DNA of 64,000 nucleotides from Patescibacteria group bacterium. GTDB lineage: Bacteria; Patescibacteriota; Patescibacteriia; Patescibacteriales; UBA12465. The notes beneath the pieces were generated by a model. The model saw nothing but the letters and a program-made list of their open reading frames with translations, searched no databases and was not told the origin of the DNA. The translations under genes and the position numbers were made by a program. How positions within the stretch are numbered: position 1 is the stretch's first letter; each line of letters starts with the position of its first letter. Positions 7,668-62,586 of this stretch are shown here, piece after piece. The stretch is from assembly GCA_035269015.1 (NCBI GenBank), contig DATFJU010000031.1, positions 41,326 to 105,325 on the forward strand, given 5' to 3'.

Positions 7668-9074
7668 TTAAATATTTTTTACAAACAACAGATTTTTTCG
7701 AAGTCTGTTTTTTGTTATCTGAAAATATAATAATATTCCTAAATAATACAAAAAAACAAAGTATATATTAATATTTAAACTTATATAAAAAGCACTAAAA
7801 TTAAAACTAGCTATAATATAAAAATATTCAAAAACAAAATATAAAGGTATAAAAAATATTTTAGATATAAAAGCTATACCTGACACACTGATACCTGAAA
7901 TAATTAAAACCAAGATTACTGGAAGAAGTGGTAATATTAATAAATTAAGAAAAATTGATAAAGTGTTATAAACACCAAAATAATATAAAAGAAGTGGCCA
8001 AAGTATAATGTTAACTGCCAAAGAAGCTATAAACAAAAAATAAAAATATTTAAAGTATTTATTTTTAAATATAGTGATAATAAATTTATATAAACTCAAC
8101 TTTAAACCTCTATATCTGCCCTCTTTAAGTTTTAGCGCCACTTTACTAACTCTTCTAATAATATAATAATCTAAACTTGGCATAATACTTAGAAGCGACC
8201 AAACTGCTAAAAAAGACATTTGCATAGCCGGACTAAACAATAATTCAGGTGAAATAAAAAGTATAATAAAACCTGCTAAATACAATCTATTTAAAGACTT
8301 TTTTAAAGTGTTAGCACTGAAGCTAATTATAATCATTATCACTGCCCTTGAGGCAGAAACACTAAAACTAATCATAGCTAAATATATAAGTAAAATACCG
8401 CTTATTAAAAACTTAATTAACTTATTATTAACTCTTAATCTTTTAAAAATAAAAAAGATTAAAGTATAAAGTATAGCAATGTGCATTCCTGATATAGCTA
8501 AAATATGAGCCAAACCATTATCTTCCAAGCTTTCTTTTAGTTGAGGCTCTACCTCTGTTTTTAAACCTAAAAACATAGCCTTAGATAATCCTGCTCCTGG
8601 CTCAGGTAAATTTCTCTCTATCTTGTTAACTAGTTTCATTTTAAATAACCATAATTTATATTTAATTTTCTTAAATATGGCTAACGTAGAATAATTTACT
8701 ACATCTAACTTTCTAATACTCCAAGAATAACAAGTAAAATATATATTTTGTTTATATAAATAACTTTTATAATCAAAATCACTATAGTTTTCCGGTACTT
8801 GTAATTTACATTTAACCAACAACTTGTCATACAAACTGTAACTAGGAAAAATTGATGTTGTAACTTGCACTTTATAGGGTTCATCGCTACACAACACTAA
8901 TACTTGCTTGTCAAAATACCTTTTGGGCTCACTACAAACATTAGCCACAAAAGACTTATCTTCAGGTTTTTTAAACTTGTGTATTTCATTGCTTAAAAAA
9001 CAAAACCTTAAAAACAAAATAAAAACTAATAAATATTTAAAGGTTTTAGATTTAAAAAAATAGCGTTTAGTCAT
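7668..9074 (-). CDS. comEC: ComEC/Rec2 family DNA-uptake channel protein (competence domain only, no metallo-beta-lactamase domain)
   Basis: 468 aa polytopic membrane protein. LAHILAISGMHIAIL is the ComEC competence-domain signature, preceded by a DUF4131-like N-terminal region. The C-terminal MBL nuclease domain is absent. Confidence 0.75.
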   Translation of the reverse strand: MTKRYFFKSKTFKYLLVFILFLRFCFLSNEIHKFKKPEDKSFVANVCSEPKRYFDKQVLVLCSDEPYKVQVTTSIFPSYSLYDKLLVKCKLQVPENYSDFDYKSYLYKQNIYFTCYSWSIRKLDVVNYSTLAIFKKIKYKLWLFKMKLVNKIERNLPEPGAGLSKAMFLGLKTEVEPQLKESLEDNGLAHILAISGMHIAILYTLIFFIFKRLRVNNKLIKFLISGILLIYLAMISFSVSASRAVIMIIISFSANTLKKSLNRLYLAGFIILFISPELLFSPAMQMSFLAVWSLLSIMPSLDYYIIRRVSKVALKLKEGRYRGLKLSLYKFIITIFKNKYFKYFYFLFIASLAVNIILWPLLLYYFGVYNTLSIFLNLLILPLLPVILVLIISGISVSGIAFISKIFFIPLYFVFEYFYIIASFNFSAFYISLNINIYFVFLYYLGILLYFQITKNRLRKNLLFVKNI

Positions 9075-10648: not shown

Positions 10649-10813
10649 CTAATCAGAGCTACTATAATTTTTTAATACCTCAACACCACCATGTCTATTA
10701 ACCACATCTAATTGCTCTTTTGTGGCTCTATCAACGGCCTGTTTAACTATTTTTGCTTTTTCAGTTGTATTTAAACCAAAAAAATTATTATTATTTTTCA
10801 TTTTCTTTTTCAT
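10649..10813 (-). CDS. small ORF (54 aa) overlapping the 3' end of the zeta-toxin-like gene; possible cognate partner, speculative
   Basis: Read manually; below the ORF-track size cutoff. MKKKMKNNNNFFGLNTTEKAKIVKQAVDRATKEQLDVVNRHGGVEVLKNYSSSD. It overlaps the zeta gene stop by about 20 nt in another frame. No family recognised. Confidence 0.3.
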   Translation of the reverse strand: MKKKMKNNNNFFGLNTTEKAKIVKQAVDRATKEQLDVVNRHGGVEVLKNYSSSD

Positions 10814-11576
10814 ATATTAATTCATTTAGTGTTTTACGATTATATTTTAATTTTAAGTAATTGTCAATATTATCAATATTAAATTTAATATTTTTTGTTT
10901 TTGTATTACTTATATCTTTTTCAACCAACCAAACTTCAACTTTCTTTTTATATTCTTTTTTTATTATATTAACATTCAAAATTGATTTGAATAAAGAATT
11001 AATAAACATATCTTTCTTAATTTTCCTTCCCTCATCTCTTTCTCTAATTTTTGTAAAACCCCAAGCTATTAATGGATCCTGATAAACATAAACAATAAAT
11101 ATGTTTGCATTAATTTTTAAGGCTGATTTAATATTTTTTTGAACAACCCCAATAGAAGAAAAGGTTCCATCTATTATAGTGTGATATTTATTTTTTACAC
11201 AATTATCAAATAAAATTTCTATTCCTTTTATACAGCCTCTTTTATATTTATCTGAATTTTTACCATTATATCCTAGCGGTCTAAAAATATTTCTAATTTC
11301 ATCTGCATCAATCCTAACAATACCATTATTTAAACTTCTTTTTTCTAAAATTTTTATTAATTTTTGTGACCACTCAGTTTTACCTGCACCTGGAGCACCA
11401 GCCATAAAAATAAAAACTGGTTTATTATTTGATTTAATGTCGTCACTGATAAATTTTTTTATAATTTCTTTTTTATGTTTTTTTGCAAACCTAAAAGATT
11501 CATCACTTATATTATTCATATAACAATTATAACAAAAATCAACAGCTCTCTCAACTGTTGATTTTATAATATACAA
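10791..11576 (-). CDS. zeta-toxin/PezT-family P-loop kinase (putative UDP-N-acetylglucosamine kinase toxin)
   Basis: 261 aa. Walker A GAPGAGKTE, then the zeta catalytic Asp motif IVRIDADEIR; YHTIIDGTFSS and ANIFIVYVYQDPLIAWGFTKIR align with the PezT/zeta core. Start is 12 nt after the rpsI stop. Confidence 0.7.
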   Translation of the reverse strand: MYIIKSTVERAVDFCYNCYMNNISDESFRFAKKHKKEIIKKFISDDIKSNNKPVFIFMAGAPGAGKTEWSQKLIKILEKRSLNNGIVRIDADEIRNIFRPLGYNGKNSDKYKRGCIKGIEILFDNCVKNKYHTIIDGTFSSIGVVQKNIKSALKINANIFIVYVYQDPLIAWGFTKIRERDEGRKIKKDMFINSLFKSILNVNIIKKEYKKKVEVWLVEKDISNTKTKNIKFNIDNIDNYLKLKYNRKTLNELIYEKENEK

Positions 11577-23559: not shown

Positions 23560-23955
23560 TTAGAAAAAGTTAACTAAATAAAGACTTAAAAGACTGAAAA
23601 TAATAATTACACTAACAAGCAAATAACTTATAGGTAATAAATGACTCAAAAAATCAAAATGTTTTTTTCTAAAGAAACTAATAGTAACTGAAGTATTAAA
23701 TATAAATACTGCTAAAGCAATAAGTGGTAAAACAAAAACCTCTTGAGGATCACCAACCTTATCAATACCAAAAAGCACATTATAATGTAAAACCATAAGA
23801 TCTGAACTAATGTTTTGATAGAGATACCAAGCAAAAACAAAGGCTAAAACTAAAAGTAATAAATTAATTATGGTATAAATACGTAAATGCTTATTAGAAA
23901 ATACTCTTTTAAAAAACCACAAATAACGCCTTAAAGCAATTAATATTTTTTGCAT
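23560..23955 (-). CDS. hypothetical small integral membrane protein (4 predicted TM) immediately upstream of mraY
   Basis: 131 aa, hydrophobic segments; 1-nt spacing to mraY suggests co-transcription. No family recognised. Confidence 0.45.
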   Translation of the reverse strand: MQKILIALRRYLWFFKRVFSNKHLRIYTIINLLLLVLAFVFAWYLYQNISSDLMVLHYNVLFGIDKVGDPQEVFVLPLIALAVFIFNTSVTISFFRKKHFDFLSHLLPISYLLVSVIIIFSLLSLYLVNFF

Positions 23956-24046
23956 ACATCAATTTTAATATAGCCCTTATAAGAAAGAGCTTTATTTAAT
24001 ATTATCATATTTTTCAATAATGTAAAAATAATGTTATAATAATATT

Positions 24047-25138
24047 ATGAAATTAAACTTTATTTCCAAAATAATAAATTATGGTCTGTGGCAAGGTGCT
24101 AGTAGTCTTTATATTGAATTAAGTTCAAAGGGTTTAGAAGTGGATTATCATGACGCCAGCGCAGATGATTTACTACTTCCCCAGAGTGCTTGTGATAAAT
24201 TTTTAACTGAATTAAATTCTTTAACCAATAATCAAAAGTTAGAATCTGGTGCTAATATTCATTTTCCATTGAAAACAGCAATTAATACTCGCACCGTTTC
24301 TTTAACTAGCATTGCTGGTGAAAATCATAAATACCTAATACAAGTTATTGAACCAGAAAGCACAGCCTGGAAATTATCAAATTTAGGCATGGACTCAAAT
24401 ATTTTAAGAAACCTTAAACAACATTTAAGAACAGGAAGACCTGAAGGCCTTATTGCTATCTCTTCTCAAAGTAAAACTGACCAAGAAAAAACCTTAGAAG
24501 CTCTAGCCCATGAATTAAAGAAATTAAATAGAGATATAATAAGTATTGGTAAGATTCATAAGAATATTCTTAATCTAGATGAGAATGAAAGATACTTGAA
24601 AGATATTGATGAGGATGATTTAATTAATCTTTTAAATAAACACGGTGAAGATGTTATAATTACCAATAGTGAAAAGGAAAATATTATTAAAGCCCTAATT
24701 AAATATAGCTTAAATAGTAACAAACTTATCATTCTAGCTATAAACAGCCAAAGCTCACATGATGCCTATAATAAACTACAGGAGCAAATAAATGATAAGG
24801 GGCTAAGTAAAAATATTAACTTCATACTACATCAAGAAAGTTTTAAACGTCAGTGTCCTTTTTGCTTAGACAAAGCTGAGTATAGCTCTTATGAAGCCAA
24901 GTCTTTAGATGATTTAGCCTTTAACTATGATTTAGGGGATATAAAGAATAATTCCTATAGCAGTAGTGGTTGCAAAAAATGTAATTACAAATCATATAAC
25001 GGCAACGTCTTAGCTTTTGAAGTGCTCTCTTTTAAATACCCTCACCTAAACACCGCCTCTGTAATAGATGATGCTTCTAAAAAGCAAAAGCTAGGTATAA
25101 TTTCAGCTAATGATTTGTTAAGATTAACTAGAATATGA
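24047..25138 (+). CDS. GspE/PilB-family secretion-ATPase-like protein with degenerate Walker A/B and His box but retained tetracysteine zinc motif (predicted pseudo-ATPase)
   Basis: 363 aa. LYIELSS..EVDYH resembles the T2SSE ASDIHIEP region, and RTVSLTSIAGENHKYLIQVIE resembles the RVSTLPT.GEKVVLRIL region. The expected GPTGSGKTT Walker A reads ISSQSKTD. The His box reads AINSQSS. CPFC ... CKKC followed by GNVLAFEVLSF mirrors the C-x2-C...C-x2-C + GRxGIYELL tail of GspE/PilB. Confidence 0.5.
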   Translation: MKLNFISKIINYGLWQGASSLYIELSSKGLEVDYHDASADDLLLPQSACDKFLTELNSLTNNQKLESGANIHFPLKTAINTRTVSLTSIAGENHKYLIQVIEPESTAWKLSNLGMDSNILRNLKQHLRTGRPEGLIAISSQSKTDQEKTLEALAHELKKLNRDIISIGKIHKNILNLDENERYLKDIDEDDLINLLNKHGEDVIITNSEKENIIKALIKYSLNSNKLIILAINSQSSHDAYNKLQEQINDKGLSKNINFILHQESFKRQCPFCLDKAEYSSYEAKSLDDLAFNYDLGDIKNNSYSSSGCKKCNYKSYNGNVLAFEVLSFKYPHLNTASVIDDASKKQKLGIISANDLLRLTRI

Positions 25139-25797
25139 AAATACTTTGTGTAATCCCAGCCTACAACGAAGAAAAAAATATAAGCAAGACTGTTGAGTCA
25201 GCTAAAAAATACATCAATGATATCTTAGTGATAAATGATGGCTCTAAAGATAAAACTAAAGAGCTAGCTAAAGAAGCTGGAGCTAAAGTTCTTAGCCACA
25301 TCATTAATCGCGGACAAGGAGCAGGCCTTGAAACTGGTAATGAATATGCCAGGCGACATAATTATGATATTGTTGTACATTTTGATGCTGATGGACAGTT
25401 TTTAGCTGAAGAGATTCCTGATATTTTAAAACCCATTATAGAAGATGGCTACCCTATGAGTTTTGGATCTCGCTTTTTAAATAAAAAAACAAAAATGCCC
25501 TGGTTTAAAAAGCATATAATTATGCGTTTAGCCAAAGCTATGAACTATATATTTTTAGGTATAAAAACAACTGATCCCCAAAGTGGCTTCAGAGCTATGG
25601 ACAAGGAAGCACTAAAAAAGATAAAAATTGAAAACGACGGTATGGCTCATTGCAGTGAAATTTTAGCCAAGACCCATAAATACGGCTTAATTTTTAAAGA
25701 GGTACCTATCACTGTAATATATAATGAATTTGGACAATCACTGGGCTCTGGCTTTAAAACAGTTAAGGATTTATTAATTAATAAGATAAATAAATAA
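25135..25797 (+). CDS. family 2 glycosyltransferase (polyprenyl-phosphate sugar synthase, DPM1/GtrB-like)
   Basis: 220 aa. IPAYNEE...DIL..VINDGSKDKT...DADGQ: GT-A fold motifs. Start overlaps the preceding ORF stop (ATGA). Confidence 0.85.
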   Translation: MKILCVIPAYNEEKNISKTVESAKKYINDILVINDGSKDKTKELAKEAGAKVLSHIINRGQGAGLETGNEYARRHNYDIVVHFDADGQFLAEEIPDILKPIIEDGYPMSFGSRFLNKKTKMPWFKKHIIMRLAKAMNYIFLGIKTTDPQSGFRAMDKEALKKIKIENDGMAHCSEILAKTHKYGLIFKEVPITVIYNEFGQSLGSGFKTVKDLLINKINK

Positions 25798-25798
25798 T

Positions 25799-26143
25799 AT
25801 GTGGCAACAAATAATAGCTTTGGTTTTGATTATCATCTTCATCACCCGACTAAACCTACTAAGAAAGAAAAATAAGATTCAAAAAAATGAATATATATTT
25901 TGGATGATATTTTGGGGTCTAGCCGGATTAGCTATATTATTTTTAAAACAACTAGATACTTTATTAATAGATTTTGGTTTTTCTGGTAGTGGTATTAATT
26001 TTCTACTTTACTTAGCTGTACTTTTTCTTTTCTATTTAATCTTTAGACTAAGACTAAAAATACTAGACTTAGATACAAAAATAACTAAACTGCTAAGAGA
26101 ACTAGCTCTAAAAGATGATCATAATACACCTAAAGAAAAATAA
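25799..26143 (+). CDS. DUF2304-like small membrane protein partnered with the GT2
   Basis: 114 aa. One or two TM then LRKKNKIQKNEYIFWMIFW and a C-terminal amphipathic LLRELAL motif. It sits 1 nt after the GT2 stop, a commonly seen GT2+DUF2304 pairing. Confidence 0.5.
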   Translation: MWQQIIALVLIIIFITRLNLLRKKNKIQKNEYIFWMIFWGLAGLAILFLKQLDTLLIDFGFSGSGINFLLYLAVLFLFYLIFRLRLKILDLDTKITKLLRELALKDDHNTPKEK

Positions 26144-26145
26144 GT

Positions 26146-27267
26146 ATGAAAATAGCTCAAATTGTCTGCTCCTTTCCTCCCTATAAAGGTGGTATGGGTA
26201 ACAGCGCTAAGCGCCTAATAAAACTTCTTAGTCCTGAAATAGAACTCAGTACCTTTACTACTTTAAAGGATAAAAATAAATCTCAAAAACAAATAAATAA
26301 TGTCCATTATTTAAAACCACTAATTAAAATTGGTCAGGCTGCTATTTTGCCCGACCTATTTTTTAAATTAAAGAAATACGACGCCATTATTTTACACTAC
26401 CCTTTCTTTGGTACTAATGAAATATTATATTTATATAGATTGTTTAACAAAAAACAAAAGCTCTACATTTATTATCACATGGACGTTAGAGCCTCAAACC
26501 CCTTATACAAACTATTAAGCTTGCCCGGACAAATATGCGGTAAAGCCTTATTAAAACAAGCTGACAAAGTTATTGTTTCTAGTTTAGATTATATACAAAA
26601 CTCACAAATCAAGAAATTATACTATAAGAACCCTAAAAAATACCAAGCTATCCCCTTTCATTTAAATGAAAATTATTATCATAAAAACTTTGAAGTAAAA
26701 GACCAAAACAATATACAACTTCTATTTGTAGGCGGTTTAGATAAAGCTCATTACTTCAAAGGTGTAAGCAATTTAATTAAAGCTTTAGGAAAATTAACGA
26801 ATAATAATTGGAACTTAAATATTGTTGGTAGTGGCGAGTTATTAAACAAATACAAAAAACTTGTTCTTAATTTAAATTTAGATAAAAATATTAAGTTTTT
26901 AAATAAAGTAGATGATAAAGAATTAAAAAAGATATATGAACAAGCAGATATAATATTACTTCCTTCCTTAAACCAAAACGAAGCTTTTGGCATTGTCTTA
27001 ATTGAAGCTATGGCCAATTCCACAGCTGTTATTGCTAGCGACCTTAAAGGTGTTAATCAAGTTTTTAATGATAACTGTGGTTTAAAAATAATTCCTGGTA
27101 GTATTATAGATTTGAAAAATAAACTAGATTATTTACTTAAGAGCCCAGAAATAATTAAAAACTTTAAAAAGGAAGCTTTTTACTTAGCTAAAAAAAGATA
27201 TTTAGCTAAACACATTAAAACAAAATGGTTAAATATTTTAACTAAAAAAGAAAAAGAAAATAAATAA
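26146..27267 (+). CDS. family 4 (GT-B) glycosyltransferase
   Basis: 373 aa. EAFGIVLIEAMA-type E-x7-E donor-binding motif and N-terminal GT4 acceptor domain (PYKGGMGN). Confidence 0.8.
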   Translation: MKIAQIVCSFPPYKGGMGNSAKRLIKLLSPEIELSTFTTLKDKNKSQKQINNVHYLKPLIKIGQAAILPDLFFKLKKYDAIILHYPFFGTNEILYLYRLFNKKQKLYIYYHMDVRASNPLYKLLSLPGQICGKALLKQADKVIVSSLDYIQNSQIKKLYYKNPKKYQAIPFHLNENYYHKNFEVKDQNNIQLLFVGGLDKAHYFKGVSNLIKALGKLTNNNWNLNIVGSGELLNKYKKLVLNLNLDKNIKFLNKVDDKELKKIYEQADIILLPSLNQNEAFGIVLIEAMANSTAVIASDLKGVNQVFNDNCGLKIIPGSIIDLKNKLDYLLKSPEIIKNFKKEAFYLAKKRYLAKHIKTKWLNILTKKEKENK

Positions 27268-27273
27268 TCATTT

Positions 27274-28413
27274 ATGAAAATAGCCTTAATTAACAATCTC
27301 TATGCTCAGCAAAAAAGAGGTGGAGCAGAAATAATTGTAGAAAAACTAAAACATGCTCTTGAAAAACAAGGCCATGATTGTTTTGTTATCTCTACTGCTC
27401 CCAAAAAAATTAGTAAAAATACTAATAATAATGAGAACTATTTAATTAGTTCACTGTATTATAATCTTCATAAACAACCCTACATATTTAGACTACTATG
27501 GCACTTATACAAACAGATAGAATGTAAGTCAGTTATTAAAGTAAAAAAAATACTTGAACATGAAAAACCGGATTTAATTATTAGCCACAACCTCACAGGT
27601 TTCGGTATTAAAATATACAAAATTATAAACCAATTAAATATTCCTCATATTCATTATTTGCACGACAGCCAAATGCTTCATCCTGCTGGCAGAATAATAC
27701 ACAATCAAGAAAATATAATTAATTCTTTTTTTGCCCGTCTTTATCAAACAATACAAAAAAAATATAGTAAAAAAGCTGACTTAATTATTTCACCCTCTAA
27801 ATGGCTACTAACATTACACCTAGACAAAGGTTTCTTCAAAGATACTAAAGTCTGGCAAAAATTTAATCCTGTTGAAAATACTGAAATTAAAGACAAAAAA
27901 AGAAATTCTAAATTTACCTTTATATATATTGGCCAAATTGATAAAAACAAAGGAGTGGAATTAATGATAAAATCTTTTATTAAAATACCAGAAAACAAGG
28001 CAGAGCTTAAAATAATTGGAGATGGAAAAACTTTAAACGCTTTAAAACAAAAATATGATAAATATATAAACATTATTTTCTTAGGCAGACTATCATATCA
28101 AGAATCCATGCAGGAACTTAGTATTGCCGATACCTTGGTATTACCATCTTTAATATATGAAAATTCCCCCACTGCCCTCTTTGATGCTTTGAAATTAAAC
28201 AAAAATATAATAGCCTCAAACTTAGGTGGTAATAGCGAAATACTTAAAAAATACTATGGACAATTAGTTAGTCCTAATAATATTGATTCTCTAAGCACTG
28301 CTATGAGTAATTCTTTAAATAAAAATGAAAGAGACAAAAAACCTGCAGATCTCAGTGACCTACAGGCTAAAGTGTATATACAAGAATTACTAAAGCAACT
28401 ACATCTTTCTTAA
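27274..28413 (+). CDS. family 4 (GT-B) glycosyltransferase
   Basis: 379 aa. RGGAEIIVE N-terminus; C-terminal ENSPTALFDALKLNKNIIASNLGG GT4 donor-binding region. Confidence 0.8.
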   Translation: MKIALINNLYAQQKRGGAEIIVEKLKHALEKQGHDCFVISTAPKKISKNTNNNENYLISSLYYNLHKQPYIFRLLWHLYKQIECKSVIKVKKILEHEKPDLIISHNLTGFGIKIYKIINQLNIPHIHYLHDSQMLHPAGRIIHNQENIINSFFARLYQTIQKKYSKKADLIISPSKWLLTLHLDKGFFKDTKVWQKFNPVENTEIKDKKRNSKFTFIYIGQIDKNKGVELMIKSFIKIPENKAELKIIGDGKTLNALKQKYDKYINIIFLGRLSYQESMQELSIADTLVLPSLIYENSPTALFDALKLNKNIIASNLGGNSEILKKYYGQLVSPNNIDSLSTAMSNSLNKNERDKKPADLSDLQAKVYIQELLKQLHLS

Positions 28414-32860: not shown

Positions 32861-33868
32861 TTATTTAGTTGCTAATATTGATCTCTTATATGAGTCAAGA
32901 TTTTCTAGAGCTGTGCCTGTGCCTTTAGCCACACAAAGTAATGCATCATCTGCAATATAAGCTGGCACACCTGTAGTTCTAGAAAAAAGTTGATCTATAT
33001 TTCTAAGTAAAGCACTACCCCCTGAAATAACCATACCTTTATCCATAATATCAGCTGCTAACTCTGGAGGAGTATTATTTAAAACTTTCTTAGCTGCATT
33101 TATTATCGCTTCCAATTCATTTTGTATAGATTCAGTAATATCATCACTACTTACCACGATAGATCTAGGCAGCCCTGTCATAATATCTCTACCTCTAATT
33201 TCCATACTAAGTTTATCTTCAATAAATAAAGCTGATCCAATGTTAATCTTTAACTCCTCAGCTGTACGCTCACCAATAGCTAAGTTATATTTCTTTTTAA
33301 TAAATTCTAAAATAGACTTATCAAATTTATTCCCTCCAACTCTAACAGAGGCTGAATAAACCACACCACCCAAAGAGATTACCGCCATTTCTGATGTTCC
33401 ACCACCAATATCAACTATCATATGACCAGTCGCTGAACCAATTGGTATTTCAGCACCAATAGCAGCTGCTACTGGTTCTTTAATAATATAAGCGGCCTTA
33501 GCTCCAGCAGCAATTGTAGCCTCTACTACTGCTCTTCTTTCAGTAGAAGAAATACCAGCTGGCACTGCTACCATAACCTCTGGTCTAAACAATCTAATAC
33601 CTCCTAAAGTTTTATTAATAAAGTACCTAATCATAGCTTCAGTAATACGATAATCAGCAATAACACCATCTTTTAAGGGTTTTACAGCAATAATAGAATC
33701 AGGCGTTCTACCTAACATATCCTTAGCTTCATTACCAACTGCTAATATTTTTCTATCATCCACTGAAACAGCCACAACTGATGGTTCATTAATTACTATT
33801 CCTCTTTTAGGTAAGTATACTAGAGTGTAAGTTGTACCTAAATCAATCCCTATTTTTTTTGCAAACAT
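32861..33868 (-). CDS. mreB: MreB/Mbl-family actin-like protein (second paralog, outside the mreBCD operon)
   Basis: 335 aa. IGIDLGTTYTLVY phosphate-1, VDIGGGTSEMAVISLGG phosphate-2, ISGGSALLRNID adenosine motif. Confidence 0.85.
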   Translation of the reverse strand: MFAKKIGIDLGTTYTLVYLPKRGIVINEPSVVAVSVDDRKILAVGNEAKDMLGRTPDSIIAVKPLKDGVIADYRITEAMIRYFINKTLGGIRLFRPEVMVAVPAGISSTERRAVVEATIAAGAKAAYIIKEPVAAAIGAEIPIGSATGHMIVDIGGGTSEMAVISLGGVVYSASVRVGGNKFDKSILEFIKKKYNLAIGERTAEELKINIGSALFIEDKLSMEIRGRDIMTGLPRSIVVSSDDITESIQNELEAIINAAKKVLNNTPPELAADIMDKGMVISGGSALLRNIDQLFSRTTGVPAYIADDALLCVAKGTGTALENLDSYKRSILATK

Positions 33869-38310: not shown

Positions 38311-39123
38311 TTAAAGAGTAAGCACAGCTAAAAAATCAATTTTATTTAAATTATACAAAGGCTCAATAATAGCTTCCTGCCAAATATCATTGCTTTGTTT
38401 GGAGACAGAGCTAACTTCACCAATAATTAATCCAGGAGGTATATTTTTTTCCAATCCTGAGCTTACCACTAAATCACCAATATTTATATCATATTCCTGA
38501 GGAATAAGATTCATGGATATAGTTAAGCCTAAACTACCTTGTACCACTCCCTGGGCTTCACTTTGCTCAGAAAAACGGGCAGCAAATTTACAGTCTTCAT
38601 TAATACTTAAACAAACTTGAGCTGAGTTGTCATGAAGTGACAATATCTTTCCCACCAATATTCCTTCCTCATTTATCACAGCCATACCTTCCCTTAATCC
38701 ATCTTCTGAGCCTTTATTAAGATAAATGTTACTTTGATTTGCATTTTGAGACAATAAATTATCTGAAGCTACTACTCTTGCCATTACCTTATTGTATTCA
38801 TTATCTTCAAAGAAATTTAAATAATTTCTTAATTTATCATTTTCTCTTTCTACTTCCTGCCACTTAGCTTTTTCAGCTAATAACTCATTAACTTGTATTT
38901 GCAGATTTTCGTTATTTTCTTTTAAATTTCTTTCTTCTTGAGAACCCTTAAAAGATGGCTTCCAATTACTGCCTAAATTATAAAAAACTTCTCCACCTTT
39001 ATTTATCCCACCAATAATTGTTTTCTCTATAGGTTTTAAAGCATTTAAGTAATGCAAAAATACAAGCAATATAAATAAAGCTAGAATAAAGTATATTTTC
39101 TTTTTATTAAAAGTTTTCTGCAT
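38311..39123 (-). CDS. mreC: rod shape-determining protein MreC
   Basis: 270 aa. N-terminal TM, coiled-coil (ENLQIQVNELLAEKAKWQEVEREN), C-terminal beta-domain ending GLEKNIPPGLIIGEV typical of MreC. Confidence 0.8.
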   Translation of the reverse strand: MQKTFNKKKIYFILALFILLVFLHYLNALKPIEKTIIGGINKGGEVFYNLGSNWKPSFKGSQEERNLKENNENLQIQVNELLAEKAKWQEVERENDKLRNYLNFFEDNEYNKVMARVVASDNLLSQNANQSNIYLNKGSEDGLREGMAVINEEGILVGKILSLHDNSAQVCLSINEDCKFAARFSEQSEAQGVVQGSLGLTISMNLIPQEYDINIGDLVVSSGLEKNIPPGLIIGEVSSVSKQSNDIWQEAIIEPLYNLNKIDFLAVLTL

Positions 39124-39131
39124 GAAATATA

Positions 39132-40175
39132 TTAATCTTCCATGTCAGCAGAAGAGACTATCTTTTCTAAAAGCTCAAAATCATCAAGCAACGCACCAGC
39201 TCCTCTAGACACACAAGTTAAGGGGTCTTCTACAATATTAACGGGGATTTTAGTAGCTTGAGCAATAGCTTTATCCAAACCCCTAAGCATAGACCCACCA
39301 CCTGAAATATATATACCCCTTTGATAAATATCAGAAACTAACTCAGGAGGTGTATTTTCTAAAGTATTTTTAATATTATCTACCATTTTACTTACAGTTT
39401 TAGAAATAGCTTCTCTAACTTGATCATCACTTATATTTATAGCTTTTGGTAAACCAGTTAAGAGATCTCTACCTCTAACTTCTATTGTTTTAGGTTCTTC
39501 TAATGGCAAAGCACTACCAATCTCAATCTTTACCTTCTCTGCTAATTGTTCTCCAATTAAAATGTTAAACTCTTCTTTAATATAATCAACAATATTAGTA
39601 TCAAACTCATTACCAGCAATTCTAAGTGACTTCCAAGTAACTACACCGCCTAAAGATATCACAGCAATCTCAGTAGTACCTCCACCAATATCAACCATCA
39701 TAGTAGCAGTGGCTTCAGTGACTGGCAATCCTGAACCAATAGCTGCAGCCATAGCTTCATCTATCAAATATACCTTTCTAGCTCCAGCAGACTTAGCAGC
39801 ATCTTCAACAGCTTTTTTTTCTACCTCTGTTAAGTCAAGTGGAATTCCAATTACAACTCTTGGTCTAGGAATAAGGGTAAAAGTTTCACTGTGAACTTTG
39901 TTAATAAAATACTTAAGCATTTTTTCAGTTACTTCAAAATCAGAAATAACCCCATCAATTAATGGTTTAATAGCTTCAATATGGCCAGGAGTTTTTCCTA
40001 CCATTTTTTTAGCTGCTAGACCTACTTCTAAGATTTCAGCTGTTCTATTATTAATAGCTACCACTGATGGTTCATTAATAATCACTCCTTTATCTTTAAC
40101 ATAAATCAAGGTATTTTTTGTACCCAAGTCTATTCCTAAATCATTGCTAAATTTTCCCAGTAATTTATTAAACAT
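39132..40175 (-). CDS. mreB: rod shape-determining protein MreB
   Basis: 347 aa. GIDLGTKNTLIYV, VDIGGGTTEIAVISLGG, ISGGGSMLRGLD actin-fold motifs. First gene of the mreBCD operon. Confidence 0.9.
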   Translation of the reverse strand: MFNKLLGKFSNDLGIDLGTKNTLIYVKDKGVIINEPSVVAINNRTAEILEVGLAAKKMVGKTPGHIEAIKPLIDGVISDFEVTEKMLKYFINKVHSETFTLIPRPRVVIGIPLDLTEVEKKAVEDAAKSAGARKVYLIDEAMAAAIGSGLPVTEATATMMVDIGGGTTEIAVISLGGVVTWKSLRIAGNEFDTNIVDYIKEEFNILIGEQLAEKVKIEIGSALPLEEPKTIEVRGRDLLTGLPKAINISDDQVREAISKTVSKMVDNIKNTLENTPPELVSDIYQRGIYISGGGSMLRGLDKAIAQATKIPVNIVEDPLTCVSRGAGALLDDFELLEKIVSSADMED

Positions 40176-58367: not shown

Positions 58368-59657
58368 ATGAAAGGTAATTTTAAAAAAATAGCTGTACTT
58401 TTAGGAGACATAATAGTGCTTCACTCATCTTTAATGTTAACCTTAATTATTAGATATGGCGCAAATAACTTCTATGAGGTCTGGCTCAAACACTGGCCCA
58501 GCTTTGCTATTATCTTTTTTATCTGGATAATAGTATTTTATATATATAACCTATATAATTTAATCTTAGCAGCTGATAAGCTGAAATTTAATCAATTAGC
58601 ATTAAATGCAATCTTAACTTCAGCCCTACTATCAGTAGCTTTCTTTTATTTAAACCCTGCTACACAAATTACGCCTAAAACTAACTTAGCTCTATTTATC
58701 ATCATAACCATAGCTTTATTTATACTTTGGCGTAAGTTTTTTAATGCTTTATTACAAAACTATTTACCTAAAAACAATCTTCTTTTAATAGCTAAAAAGG
58801 ATAAGATAGAAAGCTTGGTTAACTATATTCAAACTAAAACACATCTAGGTTTTAATACAGCTCTAATTTTAGAAGAAACACTGAGTGGAGAAGAATTAAA
58901 AGACATAATCCAAACTAAAAGAATTCATACCATTGTTTTAGATCCCACCCATGCAAAAGCAGAAGCTTTTAGAAAACTTCTCTTTAAGTGCCTTCCCTAT
59001 AACCTCATCTTCACTGACCTTTCCAGCTTCTATGAAAAAATAACAGGAAAAGTCTCTATTGATACTATTACTCACACTTGGTTCTTAGAAAACTTTAATG
59101 AAGGAGAAAAAAAATACTTTAATCATATTAAAAGAATATATGACCTTATTATGGCTCTAATTATTTTCCTTATTACTTTACCACTATGGTTAATCATTGC
59201 TGTAATAATAATCTTAGATTCAGGACTACCTATTTTCTTCAAGCAAAAGAGATTAGGAAAAAATGGAGCAATGTTTCAGATTATTAAGTTTAGGACTATG
59301 AAAAATGAAGAAATTACTAAAGCTGGGTCATTTTTAAGAAAAACCCGCCTAGATGAACTACCACAGCTTCTAAACATCCTCCAAGGAAAAATGAGCTTTA
59401 TTGGTCCTAGACCAGAACAACCAAGTATTGTGGAAAAATTAAAAGAACAAATTCCCTTCTATCAAGAACGACTATTAATTAAACCTGGTCTTTCTGGTTG
59501 GGATCAAATATCAGAGAACTATCACAGCGCCAGTTACAAAGATAGTTTTGAAAAGCTCCAATATGACCTTTTTTACATCAAGAATCGTTCAATATATTTA
59601 GACTTCTCTATTACTCTAAAAACTATTTCTACTATACTAAGACGTAAGGGGAAATAA
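58368..59657 (+). CDS. polyprenyl glycosyl-phosphotransferase (bacterial sugar transferase, WbaP/EpsL-like), initiating enzyme for lipid-linked glycan synthesis
   Basis: 429 aa. N-terminal TM bundle and C-terminal PF02397-type domain (RIYDLIMALIIFL...PIFFKQKRLGKNG..F...KFRTM...DELPQLLNIL.G.MS.IGPRPE). Confidence 0.85.
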   Translation: MKGNFKKIAVLLGDIIVLHSSLMLTLIIRYGANNFYEVWLKHWPSFAIIFFIWIIVFYIYNLYNLILAADKLKFNQLALNAILTSALLSVAFFYLNPATQITPKTNLALFIIITIALFILWRKFFNALLQNYLPKNNLLLIAKKDKIESLVNYIQTKTHLGFNTALILEETLSGEELKDIIQTKRIHTIVLDPTHAKAEAFRKLLFKCLPYNLIFTDLSSFYEKITGKVSIDTITHTWFLENFNEGEKKYFNHIKRIYDLIMALIIFLITLPLWLIIAVIIILDSGLPIFFKQKRLGKNGAMFQIIKFRTMKNEEITKAGSFLRKTRLDELPQLLNILQGKMSFIGPRPEQPSIVEKLKEQIPFYQERLLIKPGLSGWDQISENYHSASYKDSFEKLQYDLFYIKNRSIYLDFSITLKTISTILRRKGK

Positions 59658-61502: not shown

Positions 61503-62492
61503 TTAATTAGATATAAAATTAATAATTAATTTGATAATAATATCTTTCTGCTTAGGATCGCTTTCGGCCACTAAGAGTGCTAAGGCTACAAGCGCGTTAT
61601 CGCTAAACTTTTTCTCTCCTTTTTTGTTAAATAGATATTTATTACGTGCTAAAAAAAGTATAAATAGTAAAGAACCAATCCGCTTATTGCCATCAATAAA
61701 GGGATGGTTTTTAATAACAAAATAAACTAAATGAGAAGCTTTCTCTTCTATGCTTGGATATAATTCTTTTCCTCCAAAAGATTGATTAATATTGCCTAAA
61801 ATACTTTTTAAGGCTTCTCCCCTTTCCCTACCAAATAATTCACTTGCTTCTTTCTTTTTTATTAAACTATTTTTTAATCTTGATATCGCCTCGCGAGAAA
61901 CTTCGTAATTTAATACATTTCTTACTTTTGCAGTTTTACTAATTTGTAATTTATCTTCATCATACTTCTGAAGAGTTGCCCAGGTATTAGCATAATCTGT
62001 AATAACCCTTAAGAGTCCTTCACTTTCATCACTAGATAATCTTTTAGTTTCCACTGTTTTCTTTATTAATCCAACCGCTTCTTTGAATTCCTCTAATTGA
62101 CTGTCTTTTAATTCTTTTATCCGCTTTTGATTTAAAATATACCCACTAGTAATATAATTTTTCAATGTTTTTGTGGCCCATTTACGAAATTCAATAGCAA
62201 CTTTTGAATTTGTTCTATAGCCAACACTTAAAACCACGTCTAGAGAATAAAAAGTTACTGGTTTATCTGAATTTGCAATATGCATTTTTTGCATATTGCT
62301 TTTTTTATCAATCTCCCTATCTTTAAATATATTCTTAATATGACGAGAAATTACGGACTGATCCACTCCAAACAGTGAAACAATATTAGATTGTGTTGCC
62401 CAAATTGTTTCCTTATTGAAATCACCACGAAGCTCAAGCTTTCCTGTTTTTGTTTGATATATTACTGTTGGTTTATTATTAATATTTTTCAT
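61503..62492 (-). CDS. RhuM-family N-terminal domain fused to a C-terminal Fic/DOC domain (start placed at the internal Met; ORF extends to 62558)
   Basis: The N-terminus (TVIYQTKTGKLELRGDFNKETIWATQSNIVSLFGVDQSVISRHIKNIF) matches Virulence_RhuM-type proteins. The C-terminus carries the Fic motif HPFIDGNKRIGS (canonical HPFx[DE]GNGRxxR with GNK for GNG). Confidence 0.75.
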   Translation of the reverse strand: MKNINNKPTVIYQTKTGKLELRGDFNKETIWATQSNIVSLFGVDQSVISRHIKNIFKDREIDKKSNMQKMHIANSDKPVTFYSLDVVLSVGYRTNSKVAIEFRKWATKTLKNYITSGYILNQKRIKELKDSQLEEFKEAVGLIKKTVETKRLSSDESEGLLRVITDYANTWATLQKYDEDKLQISKTAKVRNVLNYEVSREAISRLKNSLIKKKEASELFGRERGEALKSILGNINQSFGGKELYPSIEEKASHLVYFVIKNHPFIDGNKRIGSLLFILFLARNKYLFNKKGEKKFSDNALVALALLVAESDPKQKDIIIKLIINFISN

Positions 62493-62586
62493 ATAAAGTA
62501 AGTATAACAAATAGGAGATAAAATTTCTATAAATTAACCTTAAAATATAAAAAAACAAGACATCTATTGTCTTGCTTTAAGTAATG

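Follow-up and report, generated by a model that had tools for sequence, protein, structure and literature searches.

A catalytically degenerate PilB/GspE homologue encoded ahead of a GacI/GacJ-type gene pair in Patescibacteria

Introduction

GacJ and Rv3632, small membrane proteins of the DUF2304 family, bind and stimulate the GT2 glycosyltransferases GacI and PpgS, respectively (bioRxiv 10.1101/180810). With GacJ present, the Km of GacI for undecaprenyl phosphate drops from 18.7 to 1.1 uM and its Vmax increases several-hundred-fold (bioRxiv 10.1101/180810). Here we describe psE, the first gene of an operon in a 64,000-nucleotide stretch of DNA from a Patescibacteria group bacterium (GenBank assembly GCA_035269015.1, contig DATFJU010000031.1, positions 41,326 to 105,325 of the forward strand; this whole 64-kb stretch is called the window below). 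The product of psE is a catalytically degenerate homologue of the PilB/GspE ATPases, and the genes that follow it resemble the GacI/GacJ pair of Streptococcus pyogenes and the PpgS/Rv3632 pair of Mycobacterium tuberculosis, in that a short GT2 of the DPM1/PpgS type is followed by DUF2304 in the gacI-gacJ order. Unlike the psE operon, neither of these pairs has a described third component derived from PilB (bioRxiv 10.1101/180810).

A link between PilB and glycan synthesis is known from Myxococcus xanthus, where PilB influences exopolysaccharide production without need of ATP hydrolysis or pilus assembly: an ATPase-deficient PilB still supports it, and the conformation that signals is the one without nucleotide (Black et al. 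2017, PMC5544727). ATPase-independent signalling from PilB to polysaccharide synthesis is also covered in a review (PMC11656802). psE resembles M. xanthus PilB in being a PilB-family protein, predicted to be nucleotide-free and tied to glycan synthesis, in the case of psE by gene context. Unlike psE, the M. xanthus protein is full length, works as an active motor in pilus assembly, has an N-terminus that binds cyclic di-GMP, and signals through the Dif pathway. psE shares with PilB, GspE (EpsE) and PilF the homology of the N2 and C-terminal domains (CTD), the two-domain fold, a tetracysteine motif and a Leu-Gly hinge; unlike them, it lacks the N1 domain and the catalytic motifs, overlaps a GT2 gene, and has no pilus or secretion genes around it in the window. 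A more distant comparison is with ArlH (FlaH), which regulates ArlI, the GspE-family motor of the archaellum. This RecA/KaiC-like protein binds ATP and hydrolyses very little of it. ArlH illustrates the principle considered here for psE, in that a RecA-type protein with impaired catalysis persists as a regulatory partner within a type IV filament system; it differs from psE in being KaiC-like rather than of the T2SSE family, in binding nucleotide and in being encoded in a filament operon.

The original prediction for this gene, made from the letters of the window, was of a dead secretion ATPase retained as a structural or regulatory subunit of a glycan synthesis/export module. We report here how psE compares with its relatives, and with the other proteins that occupy the same position in related genomes.

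Results

psE is a divergent, N1-less homologue of PilB and GspE

The psE gene and the parts of its product considered below are as follows (aa, amino acids; AF2, AlphaFold2; dN/dS, ratio of nonsynonymous to synonymous substitution rates).

24047-25138, + strand: psE, a 363-aa N1-less (N2 + CTD), catalytically degenerate PilB/GspE homologue (open reading frame, PF00437, EpsE match, AF2, Foldseek, dN/dS)
24047-24361, + strand: N2-like domain, aa 1 to ~105 (aligns to EpsE chain residues 36 to ~140)
24383-24388, + strand: N2-CTD hinge Leu113-Gly114, kept (conservation 0.90/0.92 in canonical PilB, 0.89/0.94 in psE)
24461-24490, + strand: Walker A, obliterated, aa 139-148 SSQSKTDQEK vs canonical TGPTGSGKTT (alignments)
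24542-24559, + strand: Asp box, degenerate, aa 166-171 SIGKIH vs TxEDPxE (alignments)
24650-24676, + strand: Walker B, degenerate, aa 202-210 DVIITNSEK vs DhhhhGEhRD (alignments)
24716-24745, + strand: His box, degenerate, aa 224-233 SNKLIILAIN vs TGHLVhsTLH (alignments)
24854-24865, + strand: zinc-motif pair 1, C270-P-F-C273, kept (invariant in the clade and in family members that have the zinc motif)
24971-24982, + strand: zinc-motif pair 2, C309-K-K-C312, kept (invariant in the clade)

The Pfam T2SSE family (PF00437) matches psE over aa 5-330 with 36.5 bits (E=2.9e-9; gathering cut-off 24.9), and Vibrio cholerae EpsE (1p9r) aligns with aa 5-327 in a phmmer search (E=2.7e-9). An AF2 model built with a 149-sequence alignment has a predicted local distance difference test score (pLDDT) of 91.9 and a predicted template modelling (TM) score of 0.75. 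The top Foldseek matches of this model are PilB (5tsh, E=3e-23), EpsE (1p9w), PilF (5oiu) and GspE (4pht), with TM-scores of ~0.58, and the N2+CTD cores of these four ATPases outrank PilT and DotB. The NCBIfam equivalogs for PilB, GspE and TfpB give psE only 28-38 bits, far under their cut-offs of 617-850. Together, the profile and fold matches identify psE as a true T2SSE homologue of the GspE/PilB branch, though no ordinary member of it. Chance or low-complexity similarity to T2SSE was ruled out by the Pfam, PDB and structure matches. A chance open reading frame is likewise excluded, because 363 open codons are very improbable at the GC content of the window (~30%) and because the frame is intact in dozens of diverged relatives.

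The N1/MshEN-type domain is missing from psE. The protein begins at the N2 helix with a conserved N-terminus (M-x-x-K/N), 91 bp away from the upstream gene, and its C-terminus carries a deletion of ~30 residues relative to canonical PilB/GspE. A shallow model built from 9 close homologues (family members only) recovered the N2 secondary structure, with its C-terminal third poorly predicted (pLDDT 64). The N2-like elements common to both models are helices (H) and strands (E) H5-15, E20-26, E29-35, E42-44, H46-59, E70-76, E81-89 and E95-101.

The catalytic motifs of psE are lost and its zinc motif is kept

Motifs were called from HMMER pairwise alignments, a MAFFT alignment of 26 sequences, and a MAFFT alignment of 149 sequences scored against 78 canonical sequences, and all three agree. 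In Walker A, where GPTGSGKTT has become SQSKTDQEK, G145 is replaced by D, K146 by Q, and T147 by E. The Asp box has changed from VEDPIE to IGKIHK (D168 to G, P169 to K, E171 to H), and Walker B from VGEIRD to ITNSEK, with G206 replaced by T and the catalytic Glu207 by Asn. Both histidines of the His box are gone (H226 to K, H233 to N). R33, R35, R99, R198, R243, R264 and R320 are all substituted; the first three, the conserved arginines of N2, have become D, H and Q, and the arginine finger GYxGR reads SYNGN. Retention of intact catalytic motifs under a better alignment was ruled out by the concordance of the three independent alignments.

Besides the hinge and the four cysteines, the conserved positions of psE include G134, Q263, E325 and G350, and the AFEVL segment is kept. 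The tetracysteine corresponds to the predicted zinc-binding module of the GspE/PilB subfamily. From these substitutions, psE of the window's clade has very probably lost nucleotide binding as well as hydrolysis. Because canonical nucleotide binding would be impossible in this clade, the protein would be a permanently nucleotide-free PilB core. Moreover, since psE fails every catalytic criterion and lacks N1, it is unfit for annotation as PilB or as an ATPase.

These results bear out most of what the original prediction had read in the open reading frame at 24047-25138. Its GspE/PilB-like nature was confirmed by the Pfam and EpsE matches and by the PilB/GspE core of the AF2 model. The mutation of Walker A, the Asp box, the Walker B glutamate and the His box, and the retention of CPFC...CKKC and of the AFEVL tail, appear in the pairwise and 149-sequence alignments. 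The statement that both N1 and N2 are missing was correct for N1 and has to be revised for N2, as aa 1 to ~105 align to the N2 of EpsE and PilB and fold in an N2-like manner.

psE overlaps a gene for a PpgS-type GT2 followed by DUF2304

The neighbouring features are as follows.

25135-25138, + strand: ATGA shared by the psE stop and the GT2 start, translational coupling (sequence)
25135-25797, + strand: GT2, polyprenyl-phosphate sugar synthase of the PpgS/GacI/DPM1 type, soluble catalytic domain, 220 aa (PF00535, E=3e-26)
25799-26143, + strand: DUF2304, small membrane protein of the GacJ/Rv3632 type, GT2 partner (PF10066, E=4.7e-18)
26146-27267, + strand: GT4 glycosyltransferase a (PF00534, E=5.7e-35)
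27274-28413, + strand: GT4 glycosyltransferase b, best match TuaC-like, last gene of the operon (PF00534 + PF13439)
23956-24046, no strand: 91-bp intergenic region between the divergent mp131/mraY (-) and psE (+) (sequence)
23560-23955, - strand: mp131, conserved membrane protein heading the divergent mraY-ftsW-murG-murC operon, constant neighbour (open reading frame, loci comparison)

The best NCBIfam match of the GT2 is PpgS, a polyprenyl-phospho-GalNAc synthase, at 134.9 bits, followed by AglJ and a Dol-P-hexose transferase. This score is under the PpgS equivalog cut-off of 370, so identity with PpgS or GacI at the equivalog level, with the same sugar and the same product, is not indicated. 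The best PDB matches are DPMS (5mlz), ArnC and GtrB. The combination of a PpgS-type GT2 with a GacJ-type DUF2304 implies that the operon very probably makes a polyprenyl-monophosphate sugar donor, with further steps that depend on the GT4 enzymes. Besides the low PpgS score, the locus differs from GacI/GacJ and PpgS/Rv3632 in that neither a GT-C transferase nor a flippase is encoded within the 64-kb window, and the operon contains no export component. The window also carries genes of the dcw cluster, sugar epimerases, and a WbaP-like phosphoglycosyl transferase. Apart from psE, the window contains nothing resembling PilB or PilT, and it lacks pilus genes.

A TGnTATAAT sequence at 24033-24040 ends 6 nt ahead of the psE ATG and is a consensus match only; promoter-like matches in the region upstream of psE were not enriched over shuffled sequence. 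A Shine-Dalgarno sequence is not visible before psE, and the psE mRNA may be leaderless.

psE lies directly upstream of GT2 in its known relatives

In all 13 loci that were found through psE, the gene lies directly upstream of GT2, with the 4-nt overlap or a gap of at most 62 nt. The 4-nt overlap itself recurs in L001, L002, L012, L015, L017, L026, L046 and L054. Among psE-sampled loci with readable flanks (psE identity 20-84%), psE diverges from mp131-mraY-ftsW-murG-murC in every one and is followed by GT2, DUF2304, GT4 and GT4, with an epimerase, an S8/FG-GAP peptidase, a GT4 and MreB on the opposite strand. The GT2-DUF2304 juxtaposition is interrupted in one sub-lineage by an opposite-strand gene of 138-141 aa (L009:8824-9249 and L010:8777-9193, - strand) and is otherwise constant. 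About 100 related loci contain no pilus genes besides one pilin-like gene in L017, a psE-bearing relative. That gene (L017:1363-3186, - strand; 607 aa) has a prepilin N-methylation motif and BNR repeats, and lies between murC and murG.

The membrane protein mp131 (131-166 aa) belongs to no family, has only a weak DUF1648 match, and is the first gene of its operon with or without psE. It may be an uncharacterised conserved component of the dcw cluster in this lineage of Patescibacteria.

psE belongs to a family with graded loss of the ATPase motifs

A word-indexed search returned just 13 close relatives of psE (55-100% identity), and a narrower-alignment search of species-representative genomes returned only two. 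An exhaustive profile search, which covered 1.84 billion representatives, produced 2131 matches, only three of which were at or below 1e-30, and also yielded proteins of 341-389 aa that match psE end to end. All of these are N1-less, and all lack the His box and the arginine fingers. Their Walker A region is graded, through GPAGSGKT, GPDNSGKT, GNSQSGKT, APARQGKS, SPDNEGKT, SGPNQGRT and GDNYNDRN to SSQSKTDQ in the window. Among 36 distinct psE sequences, G145 is retained in 89%, K/R146 in 86%, and T149 in 86%; the Walker B glycine is mostly Asp (D206, 64%), giving a classical hhhhD; His226 is mostly Arg; and Phe324-Glu325 is conserved. Since the G-K/R-[ST] of the P-loop persists, most members of the family could still bind nucleotide, without the machinery for hydrolysis. 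The clade of the window has D145, K/R/Q146 and E147, with D-Q-E in the window itself.

The taxonomic breadth of the family, drawn from source names and from the GT2-based metagenome scan described below, is Patescibacteria, with one source named as Falkowbacteria. Database labels on these proteins are "hypothetical", "PilB", "TadA", and "ATPase, T2SS/T4P/T4SS family". One locus titled "uncultured Gammaproteobacteria bacterium" (L014, CAYYPI010000013.1) carries a psE 76% identical to that of the window. In the dN/dS comparison it also had orthologues of ten out of ten neighbouring genes, spanning murG to the epimerase, and it is probably mis-binned or mislabelled.

Judged by their motifs, degenerate PilB-like proteins are not rare outside this family: 33 of 119 non-family matches have at least three catalytic positions altered with the zinc cysteines kept, in a search whose profile is biased toward such proteins. 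These proteins (e.g., P0028 and P0120) have the T2SSE fold, at least three catalytic changes, and the zinc cysteines in common with psE; they differ in being mostly full length (500-670 aa) with N-terminal MshEN or HU domains, and fall outside the psE orthologous series. An HU-type DNA-binding domain is fused to T2SSE in P0028 (L098:158-1744), P0088 and P0120, with MshEN as well in the latter two. The ATPase motifs of P0028 and P0120 are heavily degenerate, which makes them a second, unrelated class of dead PilB-like proteins. The genes flanking P0028 in L098 (a 3.5-kb contig, and the only such locus examined) are not glycosyltransferases. No prior description of the HU-fused or other degenerate PilB-like proteins was found in the searchable literature. 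The best non-family matches to the psE profile are proteins of ~1000 aa with two tandem PilB ATPase modules (P0016, P0020-P0023, P0025, P0029, P0048, P0083 and P0093), in which Walker A and the zinc motif are intact in both modules.

Canonical PilB, intermediates, or nothing occupy the psE slot in related genomes

We retrieved 80 metagenomic loci through GT2 (53-63% identity) and annotated them with a psE profile and the window proteins; 69 were interpretable. A complete short psE lies directly upstream of GT2 in 20 of these, again with the 4-nt overlap or a gap of at most 62 nt. Two of the 20 have the tetracysteine module, 17 lack it (deletion of ~50 residues), and one is a 418-aa form in locus L071. 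A psE- or PilB-like reading frame is truncated by the contig end in 7 of the 69 loci. A protein of 572-579 aa occupies the psE slot in another 8 (L020, L022, L023, L032, L035, L037, L059 and L079; B-type loci). psE is cleanly absent from 13 loci (C-type), where only 45-106 bp separate mp131 from GT2. The remaining 21 lack psE and are arranged differently, in the order S8, Epim, GT2, DUF2304.

The 572-579 aa proteins are fully canonical PilBs, with an MshEN domain, ASDIHIEP, RIDG, QDGRF, GPTGSGKTTTLY, VEDPIEY, DPDIIMVGEIRD, TGHLVLSTLHTND, two CxxC pairs, and GYKGRIG. One of 578 aa scores 443.6 bits with T2SSE and 35.8 bits with MshEN. The gap between this PilB and GT2 is 16-17 nt in L020, L035 and L037. 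The 418-aa protein of L071 is intermediate: it has GPFNSGKT in Walker A, both His changed to Tyr, a lost arginine finger, and a T2SSE score of 203.8 bits. The gene order of L071 is S8, Epim, psE, GT2, DUF2304, with 2 nt between psE and GT2. Because this psE sits between Epim and GT2, the psE-GT2 pair persists in a second context.

Thus, the slot in related Patescibacteria contains canonical PilB, N1-less forms with a P-loop, zinc-less forms with a P-loop, or nothing. The T2SSE score falls along the slot series from 443.6 through 203.8 and 99.4 to 36.5 bits, the window being lowest. Judged by motifs and scores, psE of the window is the most decayed member of a series that is restricted to Patescibacteria and found at one slot. 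The slot PilBs score ~250 bits with the psE profile, no better than unrelated canonical PilBs; therefore, the orthology of psE and the slot PilBs is by position only. On a neighbour-joining tree of GT2, which has no support values and unreliable deep nodes, the slot states group by lineage.

In the B-type loci (L020:4247-5983 and the others), a canonical PilB gene is located away from pilus genes, between the dcw cluster and an operon with a PpgS/GacI-type GT2. One possibility for an active pilus motor beside lipid-sugar synthesis is the glycosylation of pilins or surface proteins. Proteins rich in Thr, Ser, Asn and Ala with Sec signals are encoded beside full-length PilB in L023 (2684-3805), L020 (3318-4133), L079 (641-2230 and 2751-3494), and L059 (5246-5878). 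These secreted proteins may be substrates that become surface glycoproteins. Unannotated reading frames beside full-length PilB in the B-type loci contained no pilin motif and no Pfam match.

psE of the window's clade is under purifying constraint

Comparison of the window with three relatives at 76-80% amino acid identity by the Nei-Gojobori method (NG86) gave dN/dS of 0.126, 0.130 and 0.109 for psE; dS was 0.87-1.23, near saturation, so that these ratios are approximate yet clearly well under 1. For comparison, dN/dS was 0.16-0.20 for MurG, 0.16-0.20 for mp131, 0.16-0.18 for GT4b, 0.09-0.15 for GT4a, 0.05-0.07 for GT2, and 0.07 for MraY. Reading frames of 290-390 codons are open for psE across dozens of lineages in AT-rich DNA, and are intact in more than 30 diverged loci. 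The low dN/dS and the long-maintained open frames imply that psE is not a neutral relic in the window's clade.

Other features of the window

The window also encodes ComEC (7668-9074), a zeta-toxin-family protein (10791-11576), a RhuM/Fic protein (61503-62558) and two MreB paralogues (32861-33868 and 39132-40175). MreC (38311-39123) accompanies the MreB paralogues in this small-genome Patescibacteria bacterium. The genes at 24047-28413 and 58368-59657 are the sole + strand genes of the window, and GC skew is locally positive at 24-26 kb.

Discussion

A PilB-derived protein beside a probable lipid-sugar synthase

Because a canonical PilB fills the slot in sister lineages, the arrangement in the window is better explained by decay or exaptation of an operon-resident pilB than by a module built around a pseudo-ATPase. 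We propose that an ordinary pilB would ancestrally have headed the operon, that N1 and the ATPase chemistry would have been lost in several lineages, and that the degraded protein would have been kept for a non-enzymatic job. Translational coupling would lead to psE being made stoichiometrically with GT2. Stabilised by zinc, psE would then serve the GT2-DUF2304 synthase at the membrane as a scaffold or an allosteric regulator, perhaps also acting on the GT4 steps, and would so adjust how much lipid-linked sugar is available for making surface glycans or glycoproteins. A role as scaffold or regulator of the GT2-DUF2304 module is favoured by the maintained overlap with GT2, the second context in L071, and the M. 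xanthus precedent. It is the most likely role of those considered, at a little below an even chance, and gene order is what connects psE functionally with the synthase.

The expectation in the original prediction that the ATGA overlap at 25135-25138 leads into a GT2-DUF2304-GT4-GT4 operon is supported by the Pfam matches. Recurrence of the pairing, which the original prediction set as a check, was seen directly 5' of GT2-DUF2304 in every psE lineage, at 20-84% identity and in two wider contexts. A dead secretion ATPase that is retained agrees with the loss of catalysis and with dN/dS of 0.11-0.13, whereas its standing as a subunit comes from gene order. The gene content of the operon gives no support to the export part of the proposed module, and the type IV pilus genes that were sought were missing from the window, with the pilin-like gene of L017 the single find among the related loci. 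The original prediction held the arrangement to be undescribed. Consistent with this, the searchable literature, whose coverage is incomplete, yielded no account of the psE family or of a PilB-derived pseudo-ATPase tied to a module of the GacI/GacJ type.

Several results weigh against a scaffold or regulatory role. The GT2-DUF2304 module occurs without psE in 34 of the 69 interpretable loci; because sister lineages thus run the pair without it, psE would be an accessory and not a core subunit. Two "empty" clades adjoin psE-bearing lineages on the GT2 tree, which implies at least two clean losses of psE, and a test for coincidence of psE loss with GT4 loss found none. In the A-type loci, in which psE adjoins GT2, the ~20-kb block of dcw genes, epimerase, S8 peptidase, GT4 and MreB is syntenic throughout, so adjacency there is weak evidence of coupling. 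Between clades, psE also diverges faster than any other gene of the block, with 21-38% identity compared with 68-77% for MraY, 50-62% for GT2, and 62-65% for the epimerase. A zinc-less psE on a 2.4-kb contig (L031:97-1121) has a single frameshift near nt 650 with both halves otherwise open, which may be real decay into a pseudogene or an assembly error. No psE-specific polar cluster or conserved surface that would hint at a new active or binding site was detected among the 36 sequences. Finally, no fusion of T2SSE to a glycosyltransferase was present among the profile matches with long extensions, which are REC, PilZ, HU, helix-turn-helix and zinc-ribbon domains.

Alternative roles of psE

The main alternative, possible if unlikely, is that psE still works in pilus or competence biology, docking as an inactive core to the platform protein PilC or joining hexamers of an active PilB or PilT encoded elsewhere, where it would modulate pilus extension as a brake, clutch or assembly factor, and that its position beside GT2 is historical. 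Its descent from PilB and its retention of N2, CTD, hinge and zinc module, from which PilB hexamers are built, fit this idea, as does the canonical PilB in the same slot of sister lineages. ComEC in the window further implies that the organism has DNA-uptake machinery and probably pili, and degenerate PilB-like paralogues are frequent elsewhere. Paralogous pilus ATPases are known to cooperate, Walker-box mutants included (PMC11656802). The near absence of pilus genes from the window and the ~100 related loci, described above, points away from this role, as does the loss of the zinc module from many members of the family. Coupling to GT2 is moreover kept across clades, and the pair survives the rearrangement in L071. 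The N1 domain of GspE and PilB tethers the ATPase to partners of the GspL or PilM type, and psE lacks it. An improbable alternative is that psE is coupled to cell-wall synthesis and acts with mp131 or MraY; it might, for instance, help to apportion undecaprenyl phosphate to the peptidoglycan and glycan pathways. The divergent mp131-mraY arrangement with its shared 91-bp region is constant in all A- and B-type loci, and the enzymology of their families indicates that MraY and GT2 both use polyprenyl phosphate. However, the same arrangement is unchanged in the 13 C-type loci that have no psE, the L071 psE follows S8-Epim, away from mp131 and mraY and still directly before GT2, and the overlap of psE is with GT2 and not with mp131.

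The remaining two alternatives concern whether psE has kept an activity or none at all. A nucleotide-dependent switch, or a slow nucleoside triphosphatase with non-canonical residues, is suggested by the family as a whole, where most members keep the G-K/R-[ST] signature, have gained hhhhD, and probably still bind nucleotide. For the window's clade we consider this very improbable, as its P-loop has become D-(K/R/Q)-E, and the catalytic Glu has disappeared along with the two His and every conserved Arg. The opposite proposal, that psE is a functionless pilB relic nearing loss, would account for the stepwise disappearance of N1, catalytic motifs, zinc module and P-loop, for the fastest divergence in the block and the clean deletions, and for the frameshift in L031. 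We disfavour it and give it hardly any credence, because dN/dS in the window's clade is on par with that of essential neighbours and because 363-codon frames remain open at 30% GC in lineages whose MurC proteins are only ~50% identical. The invariant residues, the conserved length, and the conserved overlap with GT2 also speak against a relic.

Implications for Patescibacteria

A bolder form of this proposal, which we hold to be doubtful, is that a GacI/GacJ-type synthase gained a dedicated regulator or third subunit when PilB, stripped of N1 and of all ATP chemistry, was exapted. psE would then be a frozen apo-state PilB that hard-wires ATPase-independent signalling from PilB to polysaccharide in bacteria of the candidate phyla radiation, at a slot that keeps every intermediate. 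If the proposed role is true, psE would be the first case shown of a type-IV-filament motor giving rise to a pseudo-enzyme that is recruited to glycan biosynthesis, and a natural counterpart of M. xanthus PilB.

Even without a mechanism, the slot presents rare living intermediates at one position, from active PilB through P-loop-only, zinc-less and non-binding forms to absence, and this series makes the non-catalytic requirements of a secretion ATPase testable by comparative biochemistry. Moreover, such proteins are automatically annotated as "PilB", "TadA" or "ATPase", so that the pilus capacity inferred for Patescibacteria is exaggerated, in a group where pili are central to ideas about episymbiosis.

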